A stretch of DNA of 63,318 nt, filler included, from Rhabdomonas costata (GCA_019059605.1; 50 parts of 50 records of this genome joined end to end with filler, not necessarily neighbours in it), one strand, 5' to 3'. Positions 5,448 to 57,927 are shown, counted from the whole stretch's first letter. Notes: generated by a model not told the origin, from the sequence alone. A program made the numbers and translations.

Positions 5448-6345
5448 GCGTGCGGCCAAATTCCGTTGTGGCATCTCTTGGGTGGTACGTTGGGCCTCCG
5501 TTGGTGCATGTCCCCTTCTTGGCGCAGGGTTTTTTTCTGGAACGCCTTCTGGGCTGGTTCGTGAGCTTTCTGCCACCAAAGAGCAGTGCCAGCGAAGGTT
5601 TGCCCTGCCAGTGGTGCTTTACCTCTCCTGGGCTGTGGGTGTCCTCCCTCTTTTTGATATCCAATACTTGTCTCTTTGTCTCTATCATTGCTTTTTAAAA
5701 CGCTTTCCCAATATGCCTAGCCCAATTTTGATTCTCGTTGTCATCGACACTGCCCTCCCTGTTTATTTTTTTTTACTACGCTCAACCCGTTTGTACCTGT
5801 GGGAAATCGTCCCTGTCGCCGTGTTTTGTTGTGAAAGCTCTATATTTTTGGAAATAAATTGCGGATGATGACCATCGAATTTAGTCTTCCGGCCTTCTTA
5901 CCGCTCAAGCCCATGATCTCGAGAACTCGGTCCCCATACGTCGATGCTCCGCAGGGCCACCGCAGCACATCCACTGGGTGATGGCGATCGTCACCAACGT
6001 CAGCTCCAATGCATTGGGGCAGGTTTTTCTAGCTGAAAACAAGTATGTCACCTTGTTTGAGGACAGCCTTCCCAAGCCGAAACTTGTTGCGTTGCTCCTG
6101 ACATTTTGCCCGATGTGAAGTGAGGCCACCACACCGCACAGATGGTGGCCAACCAGACAATTCTCGGCAGTGTTGTAGCAGTAGCAGTATAGGTAGTCAC
6201 CGTTGATAGTTTCGCTACCCCCCACCCCCACCCCTCCCCTTCCCANNNNNNNNNNNNNNNNNNNNNNNNNNNNNNNNNNNNNNNNNNNNTTAATTAATTA
6301 ANNNNNNNNNNNNNNNNNNNNNNNNNNNNNNNNNNNNNNNNNNNN

Positions 6346-7514
6346 TCGGCACCCCATCGAGCAAGTCAGCTCAGCGGGGCAATTTGCGGTGCGCCCACAT
6401 GACAACCTCACAGCGCGTAAAAGAAACTCAAATATACACTGGCCGGGGGGTGGGGGGACGGGGACCTGAACGATTCATGAACAGGTGCTGTCAGGCATCT
6501 ACCTCAGCTCAAGTCCAACAAAGTCCGTTACGCTGCCCTCCTTCTCAAAACCCGCCGCAAAACAGAAGGCAGTTCCGGCAAACACCTCTTCCTCCGTTTA
6601 ACAGCGTCACAGCGGAGGGGGCAGCCAACAGATGAGCTGCCTGGTTCGGGACATAACCTGCCTCCGCGTTCAGGCATCGCCGTGACTTGGCTTGAAATCG
6701 CTCCACTCCGATGAATAACAAATGTATAACAACGACATAACTACGCCCACACTCTAAAAAAAGGTCTTTCTTCTATTTCGCTTCAATTGGAGAGGCCGAC
6801 ACACTTGGGCTGCTGTACGGTCACTCCGTTTAGCCAAACCCACTCCTTCATATGCCCTCGGATACACAGGTTTGGGAGGTTACCGCCTGACAAATGAACC
6901 TCACCGTAGATTCACCTGAGTCCTGTGTCATGTCCCTGATCACACACCTTCGGAAAAAAGAAACGCTCAAGTCAGCAGGGCATACAGCCCCATACAAGGT
7001 ACAAGGGCGAAGAAGCCCTGCGAAGTGGAAAACCCACATATAACGGAGAGCCCGCATCCACACCTCTTGTAAAGATGACACTTATTTTTGAGTTTCTGTT
7101 GCATTGTTTCCTCTGCAAACCGGCGGCGGTACGATAAAACATGATGGAAAGACAGTCAGGCGAAACAGAGGCACAGCGCATCCTTGCTTTGTTTCCAATT
7201 CTATCAAAACTAGTCGAAATTAGGGCAGATCGTCAGCATACCTCTTCAAATGACCATCATAAAAAACCACTATTGCACAGCAAGTCAAACTATCAGACTG
7301 CGGGAGGGGGAGAAGAATTGCGAACAATCCAAAGAAGGAGGGGGGTGGGGGGCAATCAGCGAGCGGTGTCGGAGCTCTAGCACCGTTTCGGCACCCCATC
7401 GAGCAAGTCAGCTCAGCGGGGCAATTTGCGGTGCGCCCAGATGACAACCTCACAGCGCGTAAAAGAAACTCAAATATACACTGGCCGGGGGGAGGGGGGA
7501 CGGGGACCTGAACG
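6346..7514. repeat. 1042-bp tandem-repeat unit or circle
   Basis: 6346-6472 is repeated at 7388-7514 (127 bp, 2 substitutions), the signature of a cyclic assembly-graph edge. Confidence 0.85.
7373..7437 (-). ncRNA. Single-hairpin H/ACA (AGA-box) pseudouridylation guide snoRNA; predicted target is the SSU rRNA site equivalent to yeast Psi1181 / human Psi1238
   Basis: Lower stem GCACCG/CGGUGC, pocket CAAAUU and GCCGAAA, upper stem GCCCCG..GAGC/GCUC..UGGGGU, AGA box 14 nt from the pocket. The pocket pairs conserved SSU CGGC-UU-AAUUUG. A truncated second copy lies at 6346-6395. Confidence 0.8.
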
Positions 7515-10399
7515 NNNNNNNNNNNNNNNNNNNNNNNNNNNNNNNNNNNNNNNNNNNNTTAATTAATTAANNNNNNNNNNNNNNNNNNNNNNNNNNNNNN
7601 NNNNNNNNNNNNNNACATAATACAGGGGAGGTAGAGGTATAGGATCCGCTTCACGGCTGCAGAGGAAGTCATTGTCAGGTGGGTTCTACCACCAGTACAG
7701 AGTTTGGGACTCCAGGGGGGCTCCTCAGAACTTCTTCTGCTTCTTCTTGTTCTGCTGGCGGCGTAGCACGGAGCTGACAGGGGGCGGGTCAAAGGAGGGG
7801 TCGTCGTCGCCCTCGGCCTTTCCCGAGGGAGCCGGGACCTCAGGAGTGACCTCCCGGGAGACTGTAACCTGCCCTCCGCCAAGCTTTGTGGTGGAAGTCC
7901 GAGAGTGCCCTGCGGTGACAAGTTTGGCACCATGCCCAAGAAAAGAGTTCAGAAGGAAAGTGGTCATTTATCAAAATAGAGCAGATGCAGCGAGTGATTA
8001 ACCAGCTAAAGGATTCAAGTTCCGCAGCATGTAACATTCGCGTTGGGAGTTATTGATGGAACCTTCTCGCCTCCTTGACTCCATCATCCCTTCCTCGCCA
8101 AAGCAAACGTTTCGGAACCTTTAGCCCAAACTAAATCGTTAGTTGCTTTCACTTCAGAGCAAAGAACACACAGCACAGAAGGCAGCAATGTCCAGAGGTT
8201 TGTTCAACTGAGCAGGCAAGAACGCGAGAAAAAAACGGGGATAAGAGCGGGATGGGGGAGGCAAAGGGACGAGAAAAATGCAACCACGACACTGAATGCG
8301 AGGGGTGTGGGGTAAAGAGATGCGTGAGTGTGCAAAAGAAATGTGCGTGGGAGACATTGGGGAGCAAATAGGGTAAAAGTAGAGGAGAAGGATGAGCGAG
8401 GTGAGCAAAGATGTAAACAAAAGGAAGAAGGAGACAATGGATGAAGACACCCTTTTCGGCAGTTGATAATTGAAAGACGACGGGTCTCTTCTCATTCTGG
8501 CTGGCACACCTTTGTTCAGGGTAGTTGTAGTTTCCTGACGAGGCACCTGCAGGGTACTTGAGTCGCCCTCAAATTCGCCGAACTCACCATCCTCGCCCCG
8601 GTCTGGGACATCCCACCCGGACTTCTCCACCACTGTTCACATGACAAACACACACACATACAAGCTTTCATGTTGTGAGCAAGTAAACGCTCACCACAAA
8701 TGAAAACGAAGAGGCAACTTCATTTGTCCTGCTCGCAAAAGGAAAAAAAATGGCCGGAGTTTGTTGTGCAAAGAACCACANNNNNNNNNNNNNNNNNNNN
8801 NNNNNNNNNNNNNNNNNNNNNNNNTTAATTAATTAANNNNNNNNNNNNNNNNNNNNNNNNNNNNNNNNNNNNNNNNNNNNGTGTTGGGTGTGGTTGGGGG
8901 GGTTGGGCAGTATTTTTTTTGCTTGTGGGAGCCTCTGATAACATCTGCGGTACTTGAAGCGGTAAAGGCCACGACAATGACGCGCAGAGAGCTGGCATCC
9001 TGAAGTCCATTTGGAACCACGTGGAGAACACTGCAGCATTTTCGTTGAGTACCTGCACTTTGCTAATGCTTTTCTTGTCAACGTAGCCTCTGGTGCTTTG
9101 ATCGATGACGTTAACCAGGCAATACCACAGTACTTGTGGGACCTCTAACGTATGAATGTAGCTGGGCGCAGATTTTAGCTGGCAGCACTTTGTACAAATG
9201 GATGTAGACTGGAAAGCATATGCTAGGAATTTTATGCCGACTGTTGAGACCGTAGTGTTTATTCCTCTCAGGCTTTTACTATGAAGTGTGTTGCACGTGA
9301 TTGTGCAACACGTGCCACACTTGCTTGTTCTGGCTTGGCGGCTTTGCAGTAGTATGTCTGCTGTTCTGCAACTATGGAGCACGAAGCCCACGTAATCACC
9401 ACTTGTGGACTGATCGCGGATCATTAACACGGTTTTGATCAAGACATCAGATTTTATAGTGGTGAACAAGACCCTCACTTCCGAGTGGGCCAATTACCAC
9501 CTTGTTCATATGGCTACGTGACTTATAAAACAGTCATTGATGCTACACAATTGTTAGTGTTTGCCATGATCAAGTACATGTGGGCAGAATGGATCGAATG
9601 TGCCAAGTCACTAGCGCACGCAAAACGTGCGAAACAGTGCAAGCAGCTTCCTCGTAATCGAGCATTACTCCTGATGATCACGCACTCTAACGTACTGTGG
9701 AGGAGTATAGTGCTGCGTGATATCATCCTGTCACTCTTACTGCTGCAGTTCTGATTAACAGCTCCATAATGCCCTGCGATTCTTAGAGCAATAACACGAA
9801 GCTTAATTTTTCATCATTTAGCATGGATCAGACAACACCAGTGGATAAAGTGGAGCTCTTAAAGTGAAATGCTTTCCATGCCGTACTGATGAAATATCAT
9901 GTCGCATGAACAGATTCAAAAGGCAGCTGAAAGAAGAGGTGACCTTGGACGCGCGCAGCTCTCCTCATGGCTTACAAGCAAGCGGAACGTTTACACTGGT
10001 GGAATGCGTTACTGTACGAATAAAATCATATTGGAAGTCCAACAAACACNNNNNNNNNNNNNNNNNNNNNNNNNNNNNNNNNNNNNNNNNNNNTTAATTA
10101 ATTAANNNNNNNNNNNNNNNNNNNNNNNNNNNNNNNNNNNNNNNNNNNNGTTGTGTGGCTATGTTGCATGTTTCTGAGTGCTTCCTTCCCCACCACCCAC
10201 CCGCTCACTTGCACAAGGCGAGGATGCATGTGCGGTGTGGTTGATATCATGCACAATGCTTGCTTTTGTCGGGAAACCTGAGGCAAGTGAAGAGCCGCGA
10301 GAATGCGGTGTGGGTTTTTATCCGCACGGATTTCAGGTAATTGCCTTGCTTTGGGTTCGCTGTGGTGCTCACTCCGGGGCCAACCGATGCTTTTCGCAG

Positions 10400-11115: not shown

Positions 11116-11557
11116 GTCTGCAAGCCCCGCCCGGGGCATTTTCGCGTCTACTTGCCGAGGTCTAGTGATGGATTTTGGGCGTGCAGCAGTGAGGCGATTA
11201 TTGGAGGCATTTCTTTGCTGCCTCACACATTTCTTTCCCCTGGGAAAGATTCTTCTTCTTGTTTCCCAGTCCATAGGATGTTGCGAGGTTGTAAGTTGCC
11301 AGCAACTTACAACCCACANNNNNNNNNNNNNNNNNNNNNNNNNNNNNNNNNNNNNNNNNNNNTTAATTAATTAANNNNNNNNNNNNNNNNNNNNNNNNNN
11401 NNNNNNNNNNNNNNNNNNTTGGCCCTTCCTGCATGGGTGAAGACGCCCTGCACTGGTATGCGTCCTGAGCATGTTATTCTATTTTGCTTCGGTGTTACTT
11501 TGACAATTGGAAACAATACCGAAAACGAAACCAGAATAACATGCTCAGGACGCATAC

Positions 11558-11918
11558 CAGTGCACGGCGTCTTCACCCATGCAGGAAGGGTCAACCGGCA
11601 CGCCCACGGGTTGTCACCCAGCTCCAGGCTGAGGTTGTTTCTAGCGAACACCCCCGCCGTGTCATTCCTCACCACAAGCCCACTCAGCTGGTTCCCTGCC
11701 AGGCTCAGCACCGTCAGGTTCGGCGGAAGCCCAGACAGCACCACGGTGCCGTTGAAGTGGTTCCCGCTGAGGTTCACCGTCACTGCCGCGAAGGGCAGTG
11801 CGGTGAGGTTAGGGGTGCCCGTGAAGGCGTTCGCCGCCATTGACAACCTGCGCAGACCCCCCGGGGCATGGCTGAGGTCCACGGTGCCCGTGAAGCGGCA
11901 GCCCTGCAGCGTTAGCTC
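11558..11918 (-). CDS. Leucine-rich-repeat surface-type protein, one exon
   Basis: Repeats LxLxxNxFxGxxxLxxLP ending in a GDNPWAC LRR C-cap. CAG acceptor and GTATGC donor. Confidence 0.85.
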
Positions 11919-14143
11919 CTGTGAAACGTAAGATGCAGTCCGTGTCTGGTGAGATTCTACACACTGCAACCTCGATCAGGGTTAAAGGGCCAAGAAACGG
12001 AGAGAGACCACATTTGTTGTCTGTATCCAGAGTTGAATTGGGGGCTAAGCCCGAACCTGTACAACAACCTCGGGGCTGGCTTCTCGGTGGAGGGCAGCAT
12101 GTGCTAACTTCCACACCACATGTTTGCTGCGTCGTCGGGTGGGTCTGTGTTGCGTTCTAGATGTTTTAGATATGCGCTGTCGTTTTTGTAGATATTGGTG
12201 TCGCCTGTCGGTTCACTCGACCTCTCCGTCGCCCTTGATGGTCTCCTTCCATTCTATGCCCGCCTCCTGCCTTCGATGTTGTTCTACCACCCATTTCTTT
12301 TCTTTTGGCCCTCTCCCGTCCTTGAGTCCGTTGCCTTCCCGCGCTCCTCATGCGGTGCTTCTTCTTTCTTCACGAGAGCTCCGCTGTGTCCCTCTTCCCT
12401 TCCCTCCCAGTTCGCTGCTGCCCAGCCCCTTTGCTCTCGGTCCCCTTGTTGTCTTTCTTCAATCTTTGCCAGTCCCCTTTCCATCTTTTCTGCATTGTAC
12501 TGTGCATAGTGCCTTTTTATACTGCGCAAGTGATGGAAACCTGTGGTTACACTTTTTCCCCCCACAACCCCACCCACACCCACCACANNNNNNNNNNNNN
12601 NNNNNNNNNNNNNNNNNNNNNNNNNNNNNNNTTAATTAATTAANNNNNNNNNNNNNNNNNNNNNNNNNNNNNNNNNNNNNNNNNNNNGGGTGTGTGGGTG
12701 AAACGAACATAGGTGTGATTCAAAGGACTCCCACGAACTGCTTATCCATTGGTCGCTGAAGAGTGAACGCCATCGGGATAGGGGCTATCAGGAGTACCAC
12801 GAGTTCGAGTGCCCGCTTCCCTCCCCACCGCCCATGCGACAGGTGACGATTCCGGCGATGCTCATGGCGGGGGTGCACGTGATTGACCCAGAAGACCTGA
12901 GCCGGTATAACCGGCAGCGCCCCGTGAGCTGTGACATTCACCTCACTGGAGTGCCTCAGCAGAACGTGGCCTGGCTGGCCCTTACGGCAGTAGTGCGCGG
13001 ATGTCTAGGGAGCCCTGCTGTTACTATGGAAGCAAAGCCTCCATGATGGCGCGTATGGTCGAAGTTCGATCGAAGTTCACGGCGATGGCTGAAATGCCTG
13101 GCTGAAGACCGGCATTGATGCTGCTGCTTTTATGAGAAGTGTTAACTTTGAATGCAACATCTGTGGATGGGATTGACTGTTGGTGCCTCTGACAGAATTG
13201 CGCCCCACGTTCGGCATTGGGGGACGCTTATTCCACCCCACCCACCAGTGACGGCTGGGATTTTGCCATTGGAACGCTTGCAGCGATGCTTCGCTTGCCT
13301 CTGGTTTCAGATAACCTTTTTTTCCATCCAAAGGGATTTGATTTGCTGTGAAGAAGTTACTCCACGCTTTTTTGGTGCCTTCAGTACCTTCCATGTATGG
13401 CGACACTAAAAAAGTAAGTTCTTTTTTGGCATGTCCCAGGGTTTTGGGGGTTTTGCGCTGCGCAAGAAAACGATCTTTTGCAACAGGAAGGCGGAGTTAA
13501 CCCGCCGGAAAAGAAGCAAATGTTTATAGTTCAGTGTCCCAGCACCAATGATATGCCACACTCATTTAGCCTCCAGCAAGTCCATACCTTTTTTGTTTGC
13601 AGACAACAAAAGACGACCACCACCTCAAATAAAAGCAACCAGGAACATAAACCACACACCAGTGATTAAATTCTGTTTATGAAAAGACAGTAAAAATTCG
13701 TGAAATAATTGGAGTTTCGGGTTTGAGATTATTTGTACTTCTGCTTTTGGCCTCATTTTGCTCCAAATAAATCCCTGTATGATTCCCTTCCTTTCTTCAA
13801 ATCAGGTGGCCGGCAAGGACATTGAAAAGAGGCCAAAAGCAGAAGCACAAACAACCNNNNNNNNNNNNNNNNNNNNNNNNNNNNNNNNNNNNNNNNNNNN
13901 TTAATTAATTAANNNNNNNNNNNNNNNNNNNNNNNNNNNNNNNNNNNNNNNNNNNNGTGTTTTTGTGACTTGAGGGTACCCTATCGCCCATGCTATAGTC
14001 TCCATAATCTGTGCTGGGTGATGAGAGAAGGGACATTTTTTGCATCCACAGTGCATCCATCTAATGGGATTTTGTGGACATCCAGAAAAAAGCAACCACC
14101 GTTAGGAACATAGAGAAACCAATGGCTTGAAGATGCAGCATAC

Positions 14144-14274: not shown

Positions 14275-15269
14275 TTTTTTTTGCTTAACAGAGTAGAAAG
14301 CAGATCACCAATATAAAGAGGACTTGCAGCAATGTTAAAATCAAAACGTTCCAGAGAAAATTGTGCTCTGATCCCGGCCAGGTTTAGCGGGGGGGGGTGT
14401 GCCACCATTGACTGCATTTCTTGGTATTGCTTTGCAGGCTGGTGAACGGGTAAACAGACAGTAAGAAAGGGAGAAATGCCCAAAGCAGATTAAAACGATT
14501 TCAAACCAAAATGCAGTAATATGCCTGCACAACATTTGAAATATTGCTCCACAATCCTATTTGGGCTGATTGCCGATGTATAACTTTGCAGTACTTGGGA
14601 TGTCGATGCATGCTGCGTGAGCAGCGTCGACAGATCAAGGGTTTGCAGCCCCCCAGGAAATGCTCGGATCGGACAAATCTGAAAGTGCCGATCTCAAGGC
14701 GGTTGCACGTTCCCGGAAGTGAACCCATCTCTCCCCAAAAGGTCTTGGGCCATCCTTCATGGAAACACCACTCAGAAAGGAACAGGAGCCGTAAGACCAA
14801 CGCTTCGGTAGTTGCGGGAAAGTAAAGTGCATATGCATCTAGCTGGCGGCATGGTAGAGAATACACGTGAGGGAGAGTGGGATGACTAGAGCATAGCGCT
14901 ATGAGAACAGAAAGCCCTCGGTTCGGTCAATCCGGCGACATCCTTTCAGACCACTACCTGCCCAAAAAGTCTTCGTAATGCCCCGAAAATGCAACCTGTC
15001 TTCCCCCTGGAATGTGCAAAGGCATGAGAGAAAGAGAGAGAAAAGCAAGCGTGGGAAGGTGCTGGGGGTTTCCAACACAGAGAATGAGCTGACAGACGAT
15101 TCTCTGTGTTGGAAACCCCCACCCCNNNNNNNNNNNNNNNNNNNNNNNNNNNNNNNNNNNNNNNNNNNNTTAATTAATTAANNNNNNNNNNNNNNNNNNN
15201 NNNNNNNNNNNNNNNNNNNNNNNNNGTGGTGGGTGTGTTTGGTTGGTTTGTGCATTGCGCTTGAACATG

Positions 15270-16099: not shown

Positions 16100-16949
16100 C
16101 TGAGAGGAACAATCCGAAGAGACCCCTTCGACATTCTGTCCTTGCCGCGGTCACAGTCAACGCGTAGAACAGGTCTTGAGCGTGTGAGTCCGGAAGGGAG
16201 CGTATGCCAGTGTTCAAAGGAAGACGGAAGTATGACCGAAGCCTTCACGAAATGTATAGTTCCTTCTTTTGTTCTGGACGAAACCGTTCTGCACAATGAG
16301 ACTTCGGCGACTTTGCGCCAACCATCTCTCTTTGATACAGGAGGGAGAAACGAACACTCAGTCATCCAATGAGTGACGCTTCCTTCACCAAAAACAACNN
16401 NNNNNNNNNNNNNNNNNNNNNNNNNNNNNNNNNNNNNNNNNNTTAATTAATTAANNNNNNNNNNNNNNNNNNNNNNNNNNNNNNNNNNNNNNNNNNNNGG
16501 GGTGGGGGTAGGTAGTGGTCGTGGAGGCTCAGTAACGACAGGTTGCAAGGGTGCTGATTCAGTTAGTGAGGACACTGGTTGCGCGTTAGGTACGTGATGG
16601 TACCTGGCAGGCTACTCAGGAGGTTCGTCTGGAACCGGTGGTGTTGTTAGAGACAAGGGTCTTGCAGAACTCAGGGGCGTTTGGTTGCGTACTTCACGTG
16701 CAAAGTCAAAGGGGTCTTTGTCTAAGTAGTCGTTATCTGGTAACTGAGTGGCTGAACGCTCCCTCACTGAATGGGTTTGCTCACTGACAGACGGCTCATG
16801 GTGAGTTGTTGCTGAGTTGGTGGAATCCGAGGCTTGCCCACTGTTAGGTTCAAGAATGCCTGTCCCATTCGTTGTTCTACTTGATGGGGTCCAGTAGATC
16901 TACCATTTGATCATCGGTTGGAGGCTGCGGCGGCGGTCCAGGTTGAAAA

Positions 16950-17654
16950 GGACTGCCGTAGGCTTCATCTTCTTCGTCGTCTTCCGGTATAAAACCAACA
17001 GGGTCCATGATCCGTGCCTGGTAGGGAATGAGTTGGCTGGTGTGGAAGACAGGAGTCTCGGTTTCGAGACGCATGGACGTGCGACTCATTACCTTTTCAA
17101 TCGGAAACGGTCCGACTGCTCTCGGTGACAATGGTGAACGGTGGCCCATGTAGGCTCGCTGATGTTTGGTCTGGTTGACCAGTACCAGATCGCCTACGCG
17201 GAACTCGTAGTCACGTCTTTTTCGGTTGGCTTGAGTTACCATGCTTTCTTGGTTCTTTTCAAAGGATGCCTGAATGTCCTTCCAGCCTTGCTTTCACCGC
17301 CTGTATGCGTAGAACTGCTCCGGGTCGGTAGCATCTGGTACATCACCAAATAGAACATCGTGGAATCAGTAGTTTAGTTAGTAGTAGGGACTAAACTCCG
17401 TGTTCGCAATTGGAGCGTTTTTGATGGCCATTTCTGCCAAACGATATGTGATAAATCCAGGAAACGGTATGTCTTTGGATCTGTAGTATTCGGAGGACCT
17501 GCTTTAGTTTCTGATTAGTCCGTTCAGATTTTCCGTTAGTCTGTGGATGGTGCTCTGCCTTACTTAGTTGGCACTGGTGGCAGGTTTTGACATACTCACG
17601 GACGCGTCGCTTGATGTGGGGAAAGGCGTAGCGACGCGTCCGTGAGTATGTCAA
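16950..17654 (-). mobile_element. Degenerate Ty3/Gypsy LTR-retrotransposon integrase
   Basis: VREYVKTCHQCQ (zinc finger), HPQTNGKSERTNQ (catalytic E region) and FRVGDLVLV...GPFPIEKV...PVFHTSQLIPY (GPY/F region), broken by deletion and frameshift. Confidence 0.9.
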
Positions 17655-20304: not shown

Positions 20305-21473
20305 TTGTGGGCGGGCGCACCCTGCTGCGGCTGGGGGACACCGACGTGGACTATGACCCGAACTTCCGGTTCTACATCACAACGAAGCTACCCAACCCGC
20401 ACTACATGCCAGAGCTGCAAATTCGTGCAACAATCATCAACTTCACGGTGACCCCGAAGGGGCTGGAGGACCAGCTGCTGGTCGACGTGGTGCGGTTCGA
20501 GCGAGAAGAGCTGGAGAAGCAGAAGGACAAACTTGTGGTGCAGATCGCCGAGGGCAAAGCCCAGCTCAAGGCCACGGAGGACAAGATCCTCACCCTTCTG
20601 CAGAGCGCTTCCGGAAACATCCTGGACAACGAGGTCCTGATCAACACTCTGGCGCAGAGCAAGAAGACCAGCGGGGAGATTTCTGCGGACGTCGAGACCG
20701 CGGAGAAGACCAGCGCGGAGATCTCGACGGCGCGCGAGGGGTACCGCCCTGTAGCCATCCGAGGCAGCTTGATCTACACCGTGATTGCCAATGTTGGGGC
20801 GGTGGACCACATGTACCAGAACAGCCTGCAGTTCTTCAAGAAGCTGTTTGGGCAGACCATGGAGCGCACCCCCCGGGCGGATGAGCTGGAGCAGCGCATC
20901 TCCGCCCTGATCACGGCGATTACCGCGGACACCTACGCGACGATCTGCCGCGGGCTTTTCGAGAAGCACAAGCTGCTTTTCGCCGCGCTCATCGCGGTGG
21001 AGATCCTCCGCAACAACCGTACCATCACAGACGAGGAGTGGGGGTTCTTCCTGCGCGGGCCAGGCAGCTCCAAGCCCGACAGCTCCGAGCACCCACAGTG
21101 GCTCAGCGAGAGCCTGTGGGCGGACGTCCGGGCGCTGAGCAAGATGGAAGGGTTTGTCGGGTTGGATGTAGCGATGCAAAAGCACAACCGGCAGTGGAAG
21201 GACTGGTTCGAGGCGGACAACCCCCAGACCCTCCCCGTGCCTCCCGGGCTACCAGAGCTCAGCGAGTGGAGGAAGGCCCTACTTCTCAGAGTGCTCCGCG
21301 AGGAGAAGCTGCTGCTTCTTTTGCAGCAGCTGGTGGGGTACTACCTGGGCCCCTCCTTCGCGGAGAGCCCCCAGTTCGACCTGGAGGGGGGCTTCGCGGA
21401 TAGCTCCCCCACTACCCCGATCATCTTCGTGCTGAGCACGGGCTCGGACCCCACGGCGCTTTTACCCAAAACA
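20305..21473 (+). CDS. Axonemal dynein heavy chain (DNAH6-like inner arm), AAA5-AAA6 fragment
   Basis: Uninterrupted ~389 codons including FRFYITTKLPNPHYMPE..INFTVT..GLEDQLL, GNILDNEVLI, CRGLFEKHKLLF and PIIFVLSTGSDP. Confidence 0.97.
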
Positions 21474-29055: not shown

Positions 29056-32000
29056 AGCTGAAAAAGAAGAATTCAACCCCCACCNNNNNNNNNNNNNNNN
29101 NNNNNNNNNNNNNNNNNNNNNNNNNNNNTTAATTAATTAANNNNNNNNNNNNNNNNNNNNNNNNNNNNNNNNNNNNNNNNNNNNGGGGTTGGGTCTAGAA
29201 CCACGTTTCCCTTATCAATTCTTCTTTTGCTGTAGCTCTTGCTGGCATTCATGATTCACTTTCGTCATGAATGCCAGCAAGAGCTACAGCAAAAGAAGAA
29301 TTGATAAGGGAAACGTGGTTCTAGACTCAAGCCCCATTCCTGCTTTTTCATTGCACGAGTTGTCACAGCGAGCTGCTGCAGCCAGCAAGGGCTTTCTGGA
29401 TCGATGGGATGGTGCGAAGTGTCGAAAATAATACAACACGTCGCACAGGTGCTCGACTCATCCCGTACAATGAATTTAAAAGAACAGCACTTCGCCTCCT
29501 CCCCAAACCACAATACTTGCAATTTTGCTCTTTTGCTCACGCTGAGAGAACGGGACGATGACAGCAAGGTGGAGGTTGGTCAGTTGCTGCGGAAGTCACA
29601 GCAGCGCTACAGCAGCAACAATACACAGCACTGTCAAGCACGGAAAGTGTACAGCAGGTAACACGGGCATGCGGCAAGGGGGCAAGGCCACTTTCAGGGT
29701 TGCAGCGAGAAGGCACACACAGTGAGCCTTCAATGAGGCAGCACAGTCGCAGTCGCATTCATTCGGTCTACCACTGGCGTAAAAAGCCAAGGGCGACGCG
29801 ACTAAATGTTCAACGGATCAGAAGTCAAACTCGTCGTCTGCGCTGGATGACGCACCCTAGGAAGAAACGCGCGGTCACAGTTAGGCTGAAGAATCACAAC
29901 GCAGCACAACCGGCATACAGCTGTCCAATAGTCAAACGAACAAAAATGCCATGTCACACAGTCAACCCGTCAATAAAGCGAAAAACACTTGACCTAACAT
30001 GACCACAGCACACCGATGGACTTTGAATCGAGGTGCCCGTGCCCTGGACGGCGATAGACTTAGTGATCATTGAGTGGTCGTCCCGTAGCAGTTCCTTATA
30101 ACTCTGGTCGAACACATCCTCGATCTTGTACTCGTCCTGCTGTGGAGGCTTGGGGGCGTCTTGCATCATTCGCCTCTCAATCTCCTCAACGTTGGAGTCT
30201 ATTGAACGAAAGTGCTTCGCAGGGGCGGCGGGATCCTGAAGAAGACCTTCAAAGGCAAAACCGGACGTGAAAGAAGGTACCAAACAACATAGGGAGGGGA
30301 GGATTCGGAGTAGAACTCGCTTTGCGCCCTTTGCAGGCGCCACACCCCACCACNNNNNNNNNNNNNNNNNNNNNNNNNNNNNNNNNNNNNNNNNNNNTTA
30401 ATTAATTAANNNNNNNNNNNNNNNNNNNNNNNNNNNNNNNNNNNNNNNNNNNNTGTGTGTGTTGGGGTCGTGCCTTCAATCGGACCAAATATATGTTTGG
30501 GAGTTGGTAGTGGACGAAAACGCGTTTTTGCTCCAAGCATATAATCACTCATTTCTTTGTCACGTCGCTTTTTATTTTTTGCGTGGGTTTGTTCACTTTT
30601 CGGATTTCGGTCTCAGGTTGGCATTTTTGTGCGTAGAGGTAGCTGGGCTTATCTGGGTACGTATCATCGGGCCTTTTGTGTCACGGGTGGGGATTTTCGG
30701 GTGGGTGTTTAGGTTTCGGGTTTAGTGTGCGGTTTCTGTCTTCAAGGGTTCTGGATGTCAAATGGTGAAAGGCATGAACCCCACTTGTCTCCGCTCCCTC
30801 TGGTCGCTCCGTCCGGGCGTAGCCATGCTTGAACCCCTCAATTATGGTAGCGGTAAGGCGCGATGGCCCCAGGTATGCCGAGCAGTTGGGTATCGGCATC
30901 TCCCCTCAGTTTGAGTTCTGGCGGCGTCGGGGTTCCATCTTACCACGGCAGAACCAACACCGAGGCGACTTCCGACTTGCAAACTCAAACCCCACATAAC
31001 CAGACAACAGACCAACACCCACCACCAGACACAACCTTCGAAACGAAACCAGCGACCGAACACCACACCCCAACCGACCCAATCCAACGCACTTTCAAAC
31101 GGACCATGCCGTCCCTCGACACCAATACCTATTCCAGCGCGCCCCTATCCAAACCAATCAAACCACTAGTCATACTCCAAAGATATTGCGGGAACACCAA
31201 CTCCTACATCTAGAGGTGGTGATGCCTCTGGATGCTTTTCGCCTGTGACTATCCTGACCTTTATATGTATCCTTGCCCAGACTTACCTTGGTGACTTGGC
31301 TGCCCTTCTTCCCCTCGAGCGTCGCCTTTATGAAATGAGGGGTGGAGCCAACTACTTGCCTTCACCAAGCAGGTTTGGAATCTGGAAACCTTTTGGGGCA
31401 AAGCTTCTGCAAATGAAGGGTGTGTGTGATGCTCTGGACACAGGTGGAGTCGAATTGTCGGGCCTTAGAGCTCACACCTTCTGGGTTTTTGGAGGGGTTC
31501 CGCTGGGCGGGTCTCCCGCTTATGCCTTTACCGATCTCCACACAAAGCAAAGGATATGGAAGGGGCACACGACTGCACACACCCTGTCCTGTGTAACTCT
31601 GCAGCGTTCCCACCCAACACGCNNNNNNNNNNNNNNNNNNNNNNNNNNNNNNNNNNNNNNNNNNNNTTAATTAATTAANNNNNNNNNNNNNNNNNNNNNN
31701 NNNNNNNNNNNNNNNNNNNNNNCCGCAGCCTAAGACCGGGAAAAACGCGGATATTTGCATCGTCCTCTAACACCCAGTCTTCGGGTCGCGGGAGACATGC
31801 GTGTTTGGGTGAAACACAGTTGACCCCGTCGACAATCAGCCACGAACAAAGTCTCAGTGTGTGTGTGTGTGCGTGTGTGTGTGCGGCAAGTGTGTGTGGC
31901 AAGGCACGAAGGGATGCCCGGGCAAGCGGAGAGTGGAGGGAAGTGAGGTCCAGATGGAAGCAGCAGAGTAAGGTAACCATGCCCGTCCACCAGGAAAGCG

Positions 32001-34272: not shown

Positions 34273-35412
34273 TTGCTCTTTCCGTTATATGAGATTAATC
34301 TTTCTATTATTCGTACCAGTCTTGCACTTTGCTGCGTGAAGATGGCCGCGGTCGTCACAGAACGTGTCTACGGAGGGTTACACCAGTTTCTCAGTGTCAC
34401 CGGAAATCCTTTTCTGAAAGTTTTGGAGGAGGGTCTTTCTCACGCGCCTACTTGTCCCAGCTTAATGCCGGCGTCTCATCACGTCTCACCACCTGACGAG
34501 GAACAAATATTACTGCGCCTTTCCGAGATTCAATTAGAAGTTCAAGCTGGGCTGCGGGCCCTTCAGGGGCGGATGGACGCAATGCGGAAGGTGCTGGAGA
34601 ATTCTGTGCCAAGGTTTCTGGAAACTGAGACACGGCGTCTCCTGTCCGAGGCCTGGATCAGCCATCCTCTGCTGGAATTGAATGAGTAACCCTGTTATAA
34701 ACCCGAGGAAAATGGTTTCAAACGGCGTCCAAGCTACACAACGGCCGTTTTTGATCCTCCCGAATCAAGTGCAAGTGCTCGCTGCAAAGTAACAGCTCGG
34801 TGCGAAGACAACAGTCTGCAATGCATTGCCACCACAGGCCAAACCTCACCTGTGCCATCAACTGTGAAGAACAAAGCGCAGGAGACCGACCTGGATGACT
34901 GTAAGCAGATCCTGCAAACCAGACCGCAACCAGTGCATTCTTTCAACGAATGGGGTGGCGAGCAAACCCACAGCCCTTCCCTCGAAACCTCTTCCAAAAG
35001 CTCGGCTGGAATAACGTCCCTCTGTCCGTTTCTGGGGCACACGCAGTCATCCTCTCTGGAGCCATTAGTAGAGCAGATGGCATCGTCAAATTTTCAATCG
35101 CGAGTGTCTGAACGGTCAGCGACAGATTCCAACGCAGCGAGGGAATCTGTTCTGTCCATTCAAGCATCAGGCACAGAAGTCACGCCAGGATTGTGCTCTG
35201 ATCCTTGCCCACTTGGCGGCTTGATGCCAGGGAAGGCACACAGGGAAATTAACTCTGGAATGGTAGTACCTCAGAGCTTTTATGCCATGAGTGGCGCTCC
35301 CCCCTCAGCTGCTGTATTAGTTAGAGCGCAGTCTGCACCCAAGCTGCCAATTGAGGATTCCAGCAGGCACACACAAAGTCATTTCTTTAGCGCGTTGACT
35401 ATGCCGCTTTGA
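34273..35412 (+). pseudogene. ~380-codon frame interrupted by one TAA (34687-34689); product unknown
   Basis: ORFs 34273-34689 and 34852-35412 are in the same frame and the interval between them is open. Confidence 0.45.
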
Positions 35413-37137
35413 AATTGATTATGNNNNNNNNNNNNNNNNNNNNNNNNNNNNNNNNNNNNNNNNNNNNTTAATTAATTAANNNNNNNNNNNNNNNNNNNNN
35501 NNNNNNNNNNNNNNNNNNNNNNNGGGGGTGGGTGGTGTCAGGACATACGCCACGAAAAAAGGAAATCGCAAGAGGTTAGATGGCAGCGCCCATTTCAGTG
35601 GAATTGAAATGCAGTACGTTTGGTGCAACTCGAGGAGGGGGTTGCTTACTGCAAAATGTTAGGCAAAGTGGAAGCCATTTGCATAGTCAACGTCCGATTG
35701 AGAATTCAAATTCATGGGTGAAGAAAGAAAACCCGCATAAAAGGTACGCGTGAGCAAGGACAGCACGCGCGTTACAGCCGAAGTAATGAGAATCGGACCG
35801 TCCACTACAGAACAGAAATAAAGGGCCTTCAGCCTTCAGCCTTTCCTTGAACTTTTGGTTCGAGTCAAGACAGGAAAAAAAAAGCTGAAAGAGAAACATA
35901 CAGAAGGGGACCGGCGCTCGTCCATCACCCGATGCTGGGCATCGGAGGGCATGTCGTACATCCCCACGGAATGGGGACACACTTAGAGTTGACCGAAGGG
36001 AAGGGAAAGGGGAGAGAAGGTGGGAAGGGCGAAAGAGTCTCAAAGGCTTGCAGAGTAGAAGTTTGGAGGAGAGAGAAAAATATAAAAGAGAGAAACAGAG
36101 CTCCACACACACAGAGAAAACACCCCAAAGACGGGCAATAACAGAGAAGAGATTTGAGCCCTGCGAGAAGCCCATCACGAAACGCACGACTTTGGCGTTT
36201 GGGTGCAGGAAGGGGCAACCTTTTGGAGTCTTGTACAGTTCTTGTGTGGGGACCGGGGGACAGAAACCGACCACATCTGACACTTTTCTACATTGCTGCT
36301 GCAGGATTGCTTCGCTGATGACGTTGCTTTTTTGGTCTTTCTTCTCGCCTCGCGTGCGCGTTTCACAGTGCTTGTTTGGGCAAGGCGTGGAGGGATTTCA
36401 TGAGGGGAAAGTATTTCTGATGTGTGCGTCTGATATGGCCTCTTAGCCCAGAGCAACACAGAATGGGTCAGAAAACGCCACGCCTCGCTCAAAGCCAGTT
36501 GCTCGGCAACTCTAGACACAGCAAGGGTAACAATTAGGTCACAACTGCCTTATCCTGGAAACTGTATCGGGGTTTCTTTACAACAACTCCTATTCTTCTT
36601 CATTTCTTTTGATGTAACAACGTGTGCACAGCAGTACTTGAAGCGTAACCACAAAACAAATGAAGAAGAATAGGAGTTGTTGTAAAGAAACCNNNNNNNN
36701 NNNNNNNNNNNNNNNNNNNNNNNNNNNNNNNNNNNNTTAATTAATTAANNNNNNNNNNNNNNNNNNNNNNNNNNNNNNNNNNNNNNNNNNNNGGGGGTTT
36801 GGCGCTTTGCATGCTACCTGCCGCAGACTTATTTTTGCCCCCGCTTCTCAAAGCCCTCGTCAGAATTCTCGACTGGATAGAAATGTTGAGTTGACAAATG
36901 CACTCTTACTAACAACTAATGTTTGGGTGGCCTTTTTTGTGGAGTGAGTTTGCGGTGAAAGGATGTTACCCAAACGCAAAGTAGTAACTGTGTTGCCGTT
37001 TCTATTTGCAGCCTTTTCTTTGATTCCATTTGAAACCAAAGGGGCCAAGGGGCACAACCGGCCGAGGGTGAAAGGTCGGGAATCTCCTGACCCCAAGGAC
37101 CGGCCACGCAGCGTTTCGGGAGGCCTGCTGGATATAC

Positions 37138-39230: not shown

Positions 39231-40747
39231 NNNNNNNNNNNNNNNNNNNNNNNNNNNNNNNNNNNNNNNNNNNNTTAATTAATTAANNNNNNNNNNNNNN
39301 NNNNNNNNNNNNNNNNNNNNNNNNNNNNNNGGGTTTTGGGTTCACAGCACCTTTCTTCAGTTACCATTCTTCTCCCGGGTTTTCCGCTTATTGCGACAAG
39401 AAGCGGAAAACCCGGGAGAAGAATGGTAACTGAAGAAAGGTGCTGTGAACCCAAAAACAATTTCTAATTGAGGAACGATATCATGCATAGGAAAACTTGC
39501 ACAAGGTTTGGATGCCTTTGAAAGGGAGACATGGAGACAGATGGAGCGGACTGTGGTAAATGGTCTCCATTGTTGCCATTTTTGCCAGAAACTCGCGTTC
39601 TGTGCCCTCTACGTCCTTCCAAGTGCTTCGCGCAGTCAAGTCCATCCAGCAGGGCCGTCTGGATTGCCCCACTCATATGTTAGAGTGCCTCTGTGCAGGG
39701 CAGGCAACTGGCCAACCATCACAACAAAAGTATTAACGGAATAGTTGCTCGCCGGTTTTGTCCGCACCGACGTCATGGCCGACCTGCCCGCCTTGTCACT
39801 GCTCCAAAGCCGAAAGGCTGGGTCCGGTCTATCTTAAACGCCGTTGTACCCTATACAAGTGGAACTTTCCATGGTACCCTATATAGCATGCGGACTTATG
39901 GAATACCTTCAATTCCAATAAAAGGGACCGCATTCTCGGAGGACCGAGGCAGCGTTGCGTCCCCGGCAAGCCCGTGCCAATGCAAGGCGGAGTGGCCACT
40001 GTCTGCAGCAGGTGCCTTGCTTTGCCGCCATAGGCTTATCAACAAAGGGACAAAGCGACCTTCCCTGTCTGCCACAGAGCGCTGGCTCTCGCGTACCTTT
40101 TGCTGTTCGTCTTCTTCCTGCTTGCACGTCCGCCAATTTTCCCGGAGGATGCAGAGCGTGCACGGTATCCACCCCGGCTGCGGAGTCAAATAGCCCGTGG
40201 ACCACCTCGCCTGGCCGTTTGCTGCGGGGGTCCAGACTAGACTGAGACTCGAGATCGACCAGCCCACCTTGAGGCAGGTCCGCTAGCTCGTTACGGATAT
40301 CGTTGTTTTTACAGACCGAGGCATGACAGAGCATGGTCTCCGATGCTCTCATCTGCACGCCGCAGCGCCGGTGCGTGTCACAAGGGGGTAAAGGAATGCC
40401 TACACTGATCTCCATGCTGCAACTCTGGAGACCAGAGTTCTCTGACATCAGGGTTGCAATGTCAGTTACGCAGTGGGAGGAGCAGAGGTCTCTGAGCTNN
40501 NNNNNNNNNNNNNNNNNNNNNNNNNNNNNNNNNNNNNNNNNNTTAATTAATTAANNNNNNNNNNNNNNNNNNNNNNNNNNNNNNNNNNNNNNNNNNNNGG
40601 TGACCATTCTTGAGAGTCTGGATTTTCCCCATGACAACTTTCCCACCACCGTGAGAGTCCGCACTTTGGGTTGGCACCTCTTCTGGTGCAAAGATCGGTC
40701 AGTGATGGAGTGAAGTGAGAGTGGAAGAAGGGGACGGCTGCAGGGAC

Positions 40748-48632: not shown

Positions 48633-51127
48633 GTGTGCGCTCGAAAGGGACAGCTTTTGATTTTCGATTGTTTGTCACATTTTGCAAGTTTTTTATGGGG
48701 AAGTTCTGGAAATTTCCACATGTGCAGGCACCGAGCTCTTGCCTCCGTGACAGTGTTGCCCCTTCTTGTGAGCTTCGCAAGTGGTGGTGCCTACCGGTTT
48801 TGTCGGCGAGCTCTGGGACTTTCCAAGGTTTTGTCGGTCGCTTTCTGATTTCTCTATGCTCTGCTTCGTTTCTCGGCATGGAAAGTGTTTGTGCATTTGC
48901 GTGTGTGGGAGGGGGGGGCATTTCGGGCAAACCAGTCTCCAAACAGTTCGGCAGTGCATGTCCCACTTCCTCCGTTGGGGCTGCGGGAGGGTGCCTGGCC
49001 CCCAGAGCCGCAGAGTCTTCTCGCCCACAAAGCCATCGGCAATCCCGTGCGAAGCATCGCAAGCAGACAAGCAGCCACGGCCAAGGGAAACACAGCGGAG
49101 GGGAGCCCAAGTAATGAGCCGGAGTGCAACTGGAGCAGCCATCCGACTTCCGACTGAGTTCAAACAAAGCAAAACAAAACCTGACGGCAAACTGGGCCCC
49201 CGTTATTCCTGGGACCTTCCTCATTTCTCGATTACGTATCAAGGAGTACAAAAGGCCCCCAGCTGTCTGAGCAAATGCACCCAAAAAACCTCCTCACGCC
49301 TATTTCATACACAGAGATACCCGCTTGTACCCCAATCCCAGTCCAGTCCAATACCCAATACAAGCATGCGCCAAAAAAANNNNNNNNNNNNNNNNNNNNN
49401 NNNNNNNNNNNNNNNNNNNNNNNTTAATTAATTAANNNNNNNNNNNNNNNNNNNNNNNNNNNNNNNNNNNNNNNNNNNNTGTGTGTGTGAAACCCACGAT
49501 ACAATTCACGAATGCAGAGGAAGAGAGAAAAAGCACGGTGTACGCACATTTTGGCGAAGCTCTGTATATAAGCACTCAGCGTGCTCACGGGACGCGGAGA
49601 CCAAAGAAGCGTAACGCAAACCTCCATCGAAATGCGCAGAATGAGCCGAAAGCATGACAAAAACGTTTACCTGTGGTGTCACTTTCACTCATTATCAGGT
49701 TGTAGCACCGTTGAAAGTCCGGAAAGCATGCAGGGTATGATGGGATGGTATAGCATCCGTCGAAGTATGTACAAACGATGTGCAAAAAGGGGCTTTGTGT
49801 AAACACCAAAAGCTGAACTATTACACCAACCATGTCCCCGACGATGCGGTTTCCCTGGCAGCGACATCCATGGAATACCTGAGCTTGTACCCTGTAACTT
49901 GAGCTTGTACCGCGGTTACGTGCGATGCCACACCCTGGACAGGGCGTCTCGCAAAGACCACGGTACGCCGGGCAACACCCAGAAACGTGGGGGTGTCTCC
50001 ACGGGGACCTCCCGGACATAGATCTGTGGGCAGGGCAGCGCAGAGGTGTCCGGAAAGTAGAAGGCCAGCACCATCGAGTCCACAAAGGACTCCTCTTCAG
50101 GCGATAGCTCTTCGGTTGGAGCAGGCTTTTCGAGGTTCCCCTCCACATCGGGTCGCGGAGGGGGCAGCAGAGGGGATGGGCGACGCCTGGTATAAAAACC
50201 GCGGTGAGGCATTTTTCAACTGCAACAGAAAAGTCGACAGCTGTGGTCAGCGGGAGAGGCCATCCGGAGGAACGCGTCACCAGCTGCATGAAACTCGAAC
50301 GTCTCGGAGGTGTACAAAAGTACCAGGTAATGTGTTGGTAACACGCACACGGACCAAAAGGACGACACCACCACAAACTTAATTTAAGAGAGGCCATCCC
50401 CTTCAACCCCTTCACTAAATGCACAAAAGTGTCTCGGAGGCAAAAGTACAAACAAATGCGTTGGTATCGCACTGCCTGCTGCCTGAGGAAAAGGTCATTG
50501 ATTTATCGCCGCACTTCACAACTTCACAGAGATAATTTAAATGCTGTCGCCGTAAGCACAGCGTGTGATCCGGCAGTGGTGCCTTGGGATATTCGTCATC
50601 ATGTTCTTCTTCTACACCAAATTCTTTTGATCACCAACCCCACCNNNNNNNNNNNNNNNNNNNNNNNNNNNNNNNNNNNNNNNNNNNNTTAATTAATTAA
50701 NNNNNNNNNNNNNNNNNNNNNNNNNNNNNNNNNNNNNNNNNNNNTTTGTTGTTCGAAACGAATTCTCTTTTCACATAAACTTTTCAAATAAAAAGCTACC
50801 TTACGCGCTTTATGTGAAAAGTTTATGTGAAAAGAGAATTCGTTTCGAACAACAAAGCAACAAAGAAACCGTGGACAGAGAAATAAACACCTGTCTTTCT
50901 TCGTTTTGCACATTTATTATTGAGCTCGGAAATGCTCCATACACATTTCTCAGTTTTGAAGTGAAGCGGACAAATAAACGCTGCTCCAATCCAGAGAAAT
51001 AACACAGCCTCATTGTTTGAAGTGATCGAAGGGTGCAATGAAGTGCGCAGAAGATGTCTCTGGAACCCCTTCCAGTTGGGGAGAAAATGGACAGCGATAA
51101 GTTGTCAGGGTCGGGGGGCAGACAAAC

Positions 51128-57083: not shown

Positions 57084-57476
57084 CGGAGGCAGCTTGAGCA
57101 GCGCAAGGATCAGCCGCTTCAGGTACGGGAACAGCGGCTTCAGGAGCTCGCGGTTCCTGTTCCGCAGACGGCGGTTAAGCTCGGCGTAGAACGGGCTCTC
57201 CTGCGCGAAGAGGTTGATCGCCGCGACGTCATCGGCCGAGTGCAGCACTGTGTCAGTGCGCACAATGTGTTGCGCAAAGTCCATCGCCGCCAGCACATCG
57301 CCGCCCAGAGCCATTTGACGAAACACGGGGTCGCGCTCCTCGGCGTAGGTAATGCACTCGTGGAGGGAAAGGTAGCGGGCATCCTTCAAGCCGCGGATGG
57401 GGCCCGTCTCGGGGGTCTCCTCGGCGGTCCCCGTCAGCCGTCCCGCAAAAACGGCGGTGGGAGTGGCAGTGGCCAT
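57084..57476 (-). CDS. NAD:arginine mono-ADP-ribosyltransferase (ART) family protein, N-terminal part
   Basis: AAINLFAQESPFYAELNRRLRNRNRELLKPLFPYLKRLILALLKLP fits the ART helical lobe. The contig ends before the catalytic R-S-E motifs. Confidence 0.8.
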
Positions 57477-57927
57477 GGGGGATCGGGGAATGACTCCACA
57501 GCAAAGAATACTTCTGTTTCGTAAGAAAGAGGGAGGAGCGGAATTGCATTCTCCCACTCCGGTCACAAAAACAATGTCAAGAAAAACTCTTTGAGCACAC
57601 AACTAAGCTATGCAGGTTTTTCGGTTTCAAAAGAACCACTGGGGAATCGAGCCTCGGAGGCTACACCCCTCACCAAACACACACCAACAAGCACACACGC
57701 GGCCCCCATTCTGTCTCACCTGCTCCAGTCCTGTACTGTGCAACGCCATAACGCGGTATGCGCAGAAGGCCAATTTTCAGCCTACGGCCTCTATTTCTCT
57801 ATAGAGCCCTGTAGAGCGGGGGCATCAAGTGGCCCTACGTGGCCTAGCTTGCACGAGCCCACAAGCGCACCATTGTGCTGCCCACCGCCACCTGTGAGGG
57901 GTCTCAGCCACAGGTGGACCACAGGTC

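Follow-up and report, generated by a model that had tools for sequence, protein, structure and literature searches.

A candidate single-hairpin AGA-box H/ACA-like small nucleolar RNA gene in a reiterated 1042-nt unit, with a predicted target in helix 31 of 18S ribosomal RNA

The subject of this article is a minus-strand hairpin at 7434–7373 of a 63,318-nucleotide (nt) stretch of DNA presented as Rhabdomonas costata (GCA_019059605.1), herein called the window, and its relation to the small nucleolar RNAs (snoRNAs) of the H/ACA-like type of the Euglenozoa. In H/ACA RNAs, the substrate is recognized by an internal loop, the pocket, of which the 3′ strand binds the stretch on the 5′ side of the target uridine (U) and the 5′ strand pairs from two nt 3′ of that U. 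The euglenozoan AGA-box class of H/ACA-like snoRNAs is built from a single hairpin—lower stem, pocket, and upper stem within ~60–70 nt—that is followed by the triplet AGA, rarely ACA, 14–16 nt past the pocket. Members of the class are stable small RNAs to which Cbf5 binds and which end 3 nt behind the box. For Euglena gracilis, single-hairpin AGA-box guides of ~60–70 nt in tandem clusters are said to have been described by Russell, Schnare and Gray in 2004 and in later catalogues of the Russell laboratory. The closest described family to the RNA considered here is the H/ACA-like RNA TB9Cs1H1 (Rfam RF01861) of trypanosomatids. Its targets in Trypanosoma brucei are the sites SSU_996 and SSU_1088 in the ribosomal RNA (rRNA) of the small subunit (SSU) and LSU3_1334 in that of the large subunit (LSU) (Rajan et al. 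2023, PMC10662448). A second study describes TB9Cs1H1 as able to guide two to three sites (Chikne et al. 2016, PMC4855143), and the supplementary table of that study gives the pseudouridine (Psi) U2-Psi14 as a further target.

We consider it moderately probable that 7434–7373 on the minus strand is such a single-hairpin AGA-box H/ACA-like snoRNA gene, with a U in helix 31 of 18S rRNA as target and located in a reiterated unit of ~1 kb. That a genuine H/ACA-like guide RNA is encoded is very likely; if it is, the helix-31 U is, as judged from complementarity, probably the target. Read from 7437 to 7373, the minus strand of the window consists of GGC, GCACCG, CAAATT, GCCCCG, CT, GAGC, TGACTT, GCTC, GA, TGGGGT, GCCGAAA, CGGTGC, T, AGA, and GCT in sequential order. 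The initial annotation had given this reading together with the stem–pocket–stem arrangement and a box 14 nt from the pocket; it is matched letter for letter, and the structure is both the minimum free energy (MFE) structure and the centroid. A script parse of the sequence places the AGA box 14 nt 3′ of the upper stem and pocket, followed by a 3-nt tail GCU, and thus within the spacing of the class. Likewise, the elements of the class are all present in one hairpin of 62 nt: a 6-bp (base pair) lower stem, an internal loop of 6 nt and 7 nt, and an upper hairpin. The folding that had been proposed as a check yielded −28.4 kcal/mol for the 62-nt RNA and a z-score of −3.89 against 200 dinucleotide shuffles, none of which reached equal stability. 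With a few flanking bases included, the z-score was −2.81, and 2 of the 200 shuffles were equally stable. The span from 7373 to 7437 given previously is retained at its 3′ end, whereas the hairpin proper starts at 7434, and the extra GGC corresponds to 7437–7435. The 5′ end of the mature RNA is uncertain and may be 7434 or, possibly, 7437. Sequence, fold, and the 14-nt geometry are direct observations, as are the resemblance to TB9Cs1H1, the complementarity, and the repeat described in the following.

At gathering thresholds, the Rfam search returned no match anywhere in the window. In a permissive search, RF01861 was the only snoRNA family matched in the window; the match runs from 7435 to 7376 on the minus strand, covers model positions 1–63 of 63, and scores 27.2 bits, with an expectation value (E) of 0.014 over a search of 3.4 kb and of 0.25 over the whole window. 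The likeness extends over the entire architecture: TB9Cs1H1 likewise comprises ~60 nt in a single hairpin, made up of a lower stem of 6 bp, a pocket, and an upper stem of 5 bp. Its 3′ pocket strand has the same 7 nt, GCCGAAA (consensus GCCGAaA), and is followed, past the lower stem, by the same 1-nt spacer and AGA; the 3′ pocket strand and the first stem base together form the identical 8 nt GCCGAAAC. The apical part reads GC.GACUUG here and GCguAcuuG in the family consensus. The stem sequences differ with pairing kept; in the lower stem, g–c is replaced by A–U and A–U by C–G. A difference resides in the 5′ pocket strand, which is CAAAUU (6 nt) here and aauAuGAA (8 nt) in the family. In addition, the host of TB9Cs1H1 is a trypanosomatid and the host here apparently is not. 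Because of the differing 5′ strand, the predicted target is not among the sites that are guided in T. brucei, SSU_996, SSU_1088, and LSU3_1334, and because of this strand and the score below gathering, the RNA is not filed as RF01861. It would represent the nearest known relative or else a look-alike. None of four 17-nt strings of the RNA had a full-text literature match in Creative Commons papers, supplements excluded.

The predicted target is contained in the motif GCGGCUUAAUUUGAC of 18S rRNA. As computed by script, 4 + 6 Watson-Crick pairs between the pocket and this motif (GCCG with CGGC and CAAAUU with AAUUUG) flank the U that comes first in GCGGC-UU-AAUUUG, and the other four Us of GCGGCUUAAUUUGAC exhibit essentially no fit (0+1, 0+0, 0+0, and 0+1). 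The 4 + 6 bp of pocket pairing that had been proposed to place the first U at the modification site are thereby confirmed. Of the broader claim of an AGA-box guide with a precise SSU target, the class was upheld and the target is to be regarded as plausible rather than precise. Bipartite complementarity in this class amounts to ~9 bp or more flanking an unpaired U-N, and the 4 + 6 bp found here refer to the conserved 18S motif as quoted, not to the host's own 18S rRNA. In yeast, the matched U is Psi1181, and in human it is Psi1238. Ten nt downstream of it, m1acp3-Psi is located at yeast 1191 and human 1248, with which the arithmetic is consistent. The motif is part of a stretch that ranks among the most conserved in eukaryotic 18S rRNA; CGGCTTAATTTGAC from this stretch apparently serves as an 18S primer in literature on animals, plants, fungi, algae, Plasmodium, and microsporidia, as far as the titles indicate. 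In viral contigs, the 18S motif had 0 matches. When the fixed pocket of the RNA was compared with 3000 random RNAs of 7 kb, that is, of rRNA size, a site of at least 4 + 6 bp was found in 4 of them (~0.13%), and a looser rule (both arms at least 3 and their sum at least 9) was satisfied in 49.

The window comprises 50 contigs of 1163–1173 nt, nearly all of 1169 or 1168 nt and apparently sorted by size. They are joined by 100-nt linkers in which N surrounds TTAATTAATTAA (N50-TTAATTAATTAA-N38 type), for example, at 6246–6345 and 7515–7614. Since the contigs are separate, neighbors across a linker are biologically meaningless, and the real context of the hairpin is its own contig, 6346–7514. This contig carries a 127-nt direct repeat at both ends (6346–6472 and 7388–7514) with 98% identity and a spacing of 1042 nt. 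The two substitutions in the alignment (columns 22 and 75) are both located within the 80-nt 5′ flank, and the RNA part (columns 81–127) is identical at 47 of 47 positions. Two real neighboring copies are favored over a simple assembly overlap by these substitutions, and the repeats argue for a gene within a tandem, possibly circular, array of the 1042-nt unit. In trypanosomatids and Euglena, snoRNA genes are usually organized in reiterated clusters, and AGA-box genes mostly share theirs with C/D snoRNA genes. What the contig displays is reiteration, not a multigene cluster. It contains no open reading frame (ORF) with a Pfam match at E ≤ 1e-4 and hence no coding alternative for the hairpin. 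When RNAfold was applied at each AGA and ACA of the contig, no second convincing hairpin with a box was found there or in the flanks of 7434–7373. One box C/D-like arrangement, ATGATGG, CTGA, TTGATAGA, and CTGA at 7260–7156 on the minus strand, was considered as a candidate of 105 nt located 113 nt downstream of the 3′ tail of the hairpin; it was rejected on account of its degenerate C box, the lack of a terminal stem, and a z-score of +1.04.

The class named in the initial annotation, a euglenozoan single-hairpin AGA-box H/ACA-like guide, gains support from the fold, the full-length although subthreshold match to TB9Cs1H1, the reiterated 1042-nt unit, and the affinities of the host, as indicated by the dynein fragment described below. 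That a real snoRNA gene is present is argued by three independent points, namely, the TB9Cs1H1 match, the reiterated unit, and the rare 4 + 6 pairing. From here, we infer expression, the RNA ends, the protein partners, the presence of the motif in the host's 18S rRNA, and the modification itself. In this mechanism, the array would be transcribed and the RNA trimmed to ~62–65 nt, ending 3 nt past AGA. The RNA would assemble with the pseudouridine synthase complex of Cbf5, Nop10, Gar1, and Nhp2. The strands of the internal loop would then pair with pre-18S rRNA: on the 5′ side of the target, GCCG would bind CGGC, and on its 3′ side, CAAAUU would bind AAUUUG. Between these pairings, U-U would remain free in the top of the pocket, at a distance of 14 nt from the AGA box, and the first U would be isomerized to pseudouridine. 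This U would belong to the region of helix 31, close to the P site, and be the equivalent of yeast U1181 and human U1238.

Several observations weigh against a helix-31 guide, and there are other explanations. According to one, the RNA is a genuine AGA-box guide with another substrate, such as LSU rRNA, a spliceosomal small nuclear RNA, or the counterparts of the TB9Cs1H1 sites in the host, and the helix-31 match is secondary or coincidental; we deem this unlikely. Its 3′ guide arm is only 4 bp long, so that many CGGC-U sites share the match. The matched U is, however, pseudouridylated in yeast and human, and a perfect 4 + 6 match is expected in only the small fraction of rRNA-sized random RNAs given above. 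The nearest family, TB9Cs1H1, has other experimentally assigned targets (PMC10662448); it shares GCCGAAA with the RNA here and yet guides SSU_996, SSU_1088, LSU3_1334, and U2-Psi14 (PMC10662448, PMC4855143). The modification table of T. brucei lists m1acp3-Psi as SSU_1596 and a Psi at SSU_1592, and neither Psi nor 2′-O-methylation (Nm) at SSU_1586, 10 nt before SSU_1596 (PMC10662448). Provided that there is no insertion or deletion in the conserved stretch, SSU_1586 is the equivalent of human U1238, that is, of the predicted target; with no modification there in T. brucei, the predicted site is not modified throughout the Euglenozoa. The RNA also differs from TB9Cs1H1 in its guides, since the 3′ pocket strand is identical and the 5′ strand is not. 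For the TB9Cs1H1 sites, the T1 fragments are CYUUUG and CYCUUCG (PMC10662448). As far as these fragments go, those from SSU rRNA begin with G|C-Psi, which is compatible with the shared arm GCCG. After Psi+1, they continue with UUCG or UUG, which places a U opposite a U at the first position of the CAAAUU strand. Owing to this clash, the RNA here would not serve the T. brucei sites, provided that their sequences are shared by the host, which speaks against the host equivalents of these sites as substrate.

According to a second explanation, the hairpin arose by chance in a noncoding, satellite-like tandem repeat of a repeat-rich genome, and no stable small RNA is made. The bare architecture is indeed common: a combinatorial scan of both strands of the window (stem of at least 5, pocket of 4–9, stem of at least 5, and 14–15 nt to AGA) found 22 instances: 9 long perfect inverted repeats and another 13, with 7434–7373 among the latter. 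Moreover, the window is nearly devoid of recognizable genes, with a Pfam match in 3 of 69 ORFs. The RF01861 score of 27.2 bits remains far below the gathering score of 55, and the window-wide E of 0.25 is weak. No convincing companion snoRNA was found in the 1042-nt unit by a box C/D scan and RNAfold of every AGA and ACA in the contig. A metagenome pattern scan for relatives (GCAAATTG, a gap, and TGCCGAAAC NNN GC N AGA) returned 1 locus, L001, and no true orthologue; L001 is GC-rich, apparently protein-coding by eye, and without a hairpin, and was discarded, ~1 such match being expected by chance. Against an origin by chance stand the z-score of −3.89, the full-length structural match to the TB9Cs1H1 family with the identical GCCGAAAC and compensated stems, and the two-part match of 10 bp, correct in register, with a conserved site of rRNA; in all, three independent features of low probability coincide. 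With 22 architecture candidates and 0.0013 per pocket, the chance that any candidate in the window matches some rRNA site by 4 + 6 bp is about 22 × 0.0013 = 0.03, and smaller again for a site at which other eukaryotes have a pseudouridine. We therefore consider a chance hairpin improbable. A longer hairpin at 7439–7370, extended by UGGGC/GCUCC pairs and directly followed by ACA at 7369–7367, would represent an ACA-box RNA or a processing signal. Its stability is marginally higher (−31.4 to −31.7 kcal/mol), but its ACA lies 23 nt from the pocket and thus outside the 14–16-nt rule, to which AGA conforms with exactly 14 nt. In addition, the TB9Cs1H1 model stops at AGA, and the z-score of the longer form is the weaker one (−2.81 versus −3.89), which renders it highly improbable.

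The preferred reading of a helix-31 guide gives a specific prediction: a minus-strand RNA of ~62 nt and, in 18S rRNA, a pseudouridine located 10 nt upstream of m1acp3-Psi. The candidate gene is beyond the reach of ORF-based annotation and is situated in an extremely fragmented, gene-poor assembly. Unless the homology considered next holds, it would be one more routine example of a class of RNAs that is well described. A more far-reaching proposal, which we put forward only tentatively and hold to be rather doubtful, is that this RNA and TB9Cs1H1 are true homologues, with the fold and the GCCGAAA arm kept since the split of euglenids and kinetoplastids and another 5′ arm here. A single scaffold of ancient origin would thus have been retargeted through a change of one pocket strand, acting on the eukaryote-wide helix-31 Psi here and on SSU_996, SSU_1088, and LSU3_1334 in T. 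brucei. For the swapping of guide arms among H/ACA-like RNAs, this would provide a dated example. It would also imply lineage-specific loss of a conserved pseudouridine of the decoding region, with T. brucei lacking the helix-31 Psi and one euglenozoan lineage keeping it.

Table 1. Features of the candidate snoRNA gene and of its repeat unit, in coordinates of the window
Feature	Position	Strand	Basis
Predicted mature H/ACA-like (AGA-box) snoRNA, 62 nt	7373..7434	−	Sequence, fold, Rfam RF01861 match
Lower stem, 5′ strand GCACCG	7429..7434	−	6 Watson-Crick pairs with CGGUGC at 7385–7380
Pocket, 5′ strand CAAAUU	7423..7428	−	6/6 Watson-Crick to AAUUUG, 3′ of target U and next nt (predicted pairing)
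Upper hairpin: GCCCCG/UGGGGU (G-U at both ends), small internal loop, GAGC/GCUC, loop UGACUU	7393..7422	−	MFE structure = centroid
Pocket, 3′ strand GCCGAAA	7386..7392	−	First 4 bases predicted to pair with CGGC directly 5′ of target U
Lower stem, 3′ strand CGGUGC	7380..7385	−	Watson-Crick pairs with 5′ strand
AGA box	7376..7378	−	Tail GCU at 7375–7373
Second, truncated gene copy: first 47 nt of the RNA, cut by contig end	6346..6392	−	Identical to first copy
1042-nt repeat unit; contig = one unit + 127 nt of next copy	6473..7514	−	Direct repeats

The window has a GC content of ~50% and contains 88 ORFs of at least 130 amino acids (aa), as listed by script, of which 69 were searched against Pfam after 19 overlapping ones had been dropped. 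At E ≤ 1e-4, the matches comprise a dynein motor fragment, a leucine-rich repeat protein, and the SH3 domain of a Tf2-type retrotransposon. The dynein fragment at 20307–21473 on the plus strand is an uninterrupted 389-aa piece of an axonemal-type heavy chain (Pfam AAA_9, 8e-48), and its contig has the highest GC content of the window (0.62). Its best match is a Joint Genome Institute (JGI) protein with 65% identity, and the best named match is from the euglenid Ploeotia vitrea (61%). These are followed by the diplonemid Sulcionema specki (55%) and by Colponema (54%); a partial dynein of Trypanosoma cruzi from a shorter length class has 53% identity over 69% of the query. The comparison is only indicative, as full-length dyneins fall outside the length classes searched, and no match exceeds 65% identity. 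The initial annotation had taken the hairpin as a clue to a euglenozoan origin, which is corroborated by this independent protein with P. vitrea as nearest named source. As far as its content goes, we infer that the window stems from a large, gene-poor, very fragmented euglenozoan assembly, apparently euglenid-like rather than trypanosomatid.

The leucine-rich repeat fragment is encoded at 11421–11975 on the minus strand (PF00560, 1.5e-06, "LSGN.F.G..P" type). The ORF fragment at 16880–17293 on the same strand contains the Tf2-1-like SH3 domain (PF24626, 2.6e-07), which indicates the remnant of a Ty3/gypsy-type retrotransposon. A further minus-strand ORF at 57084–57602, starting with MATATPTAV, appears protein-like by eye and has no Pfam match at E ≤ 1e-4; it has a motif reminiscent of ADP-ribosyltransferase domains. 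Near-perfect long inverted repeats are found at 29209–29310, 39348–39442, and 50750–50851 and also at 13723–13860, 36577–36686, and 15064–15120. The first three lie less than ~25 nt from a contig start and gave spurious matches to microRNA families on both strands. Where microRNA families were matched in the permissive Rfam search, the matches coincide with perfect inverted repeats at the beginning of contigs or in similar places; they were disregarded. These long inverted repeats resemble assembly foldback artifacts or palindromic repeats rather than RNA genes. Another stable hairpin followed by AGA(CA) is located at 35101–35163 on the minus strand, with GAAUGG/CCGUUC as lower stem and AGAUUCC/GGAAUCU as upper stem. 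It folds with −26.1 kcal/mol and a z-score of −5.15 (0 of 200 shuffles equally stable), its pocket being partly self-paired in the MFE structure, and is possibly another candidate H/ACA-like RNA.

Compared with known systems, the RNA would share its target with yeast snR85 and the human H/ACA guide for 18S Psi1238: all would act on the same universally conserved U in GCGGC-U-UAAUUUG. These guides consist of two hairpins with H and ACA boxes, whereas the arrangement of hairpin, hinge with H box, hairpin, and ACA is not found here, where one hairpin only is present. Since no two-hairpin H/ACA family of the snR85 kind was matched in the window by Rfam at gathering score or at E ≤ 5, the tie to the yeast and human guides is one of functional analogy only. 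The RNA would add one ordinary member to a class that is known, and may already be listed in the Euglena catalogues. The clusters of Euglena usually hold several snoRNA genes in shorter repeats, whereas one convincing gene is found in 1042 nt here. In design, the RNA would resemble the box AGA guides of trypanosomatids and Euglena, and the affinities of the host likewise point to the euglenids; the guides of E. gracilis are also single-hairpin RNAs, encoded in tandemly repeated clusters there and in a reiterated unit here.

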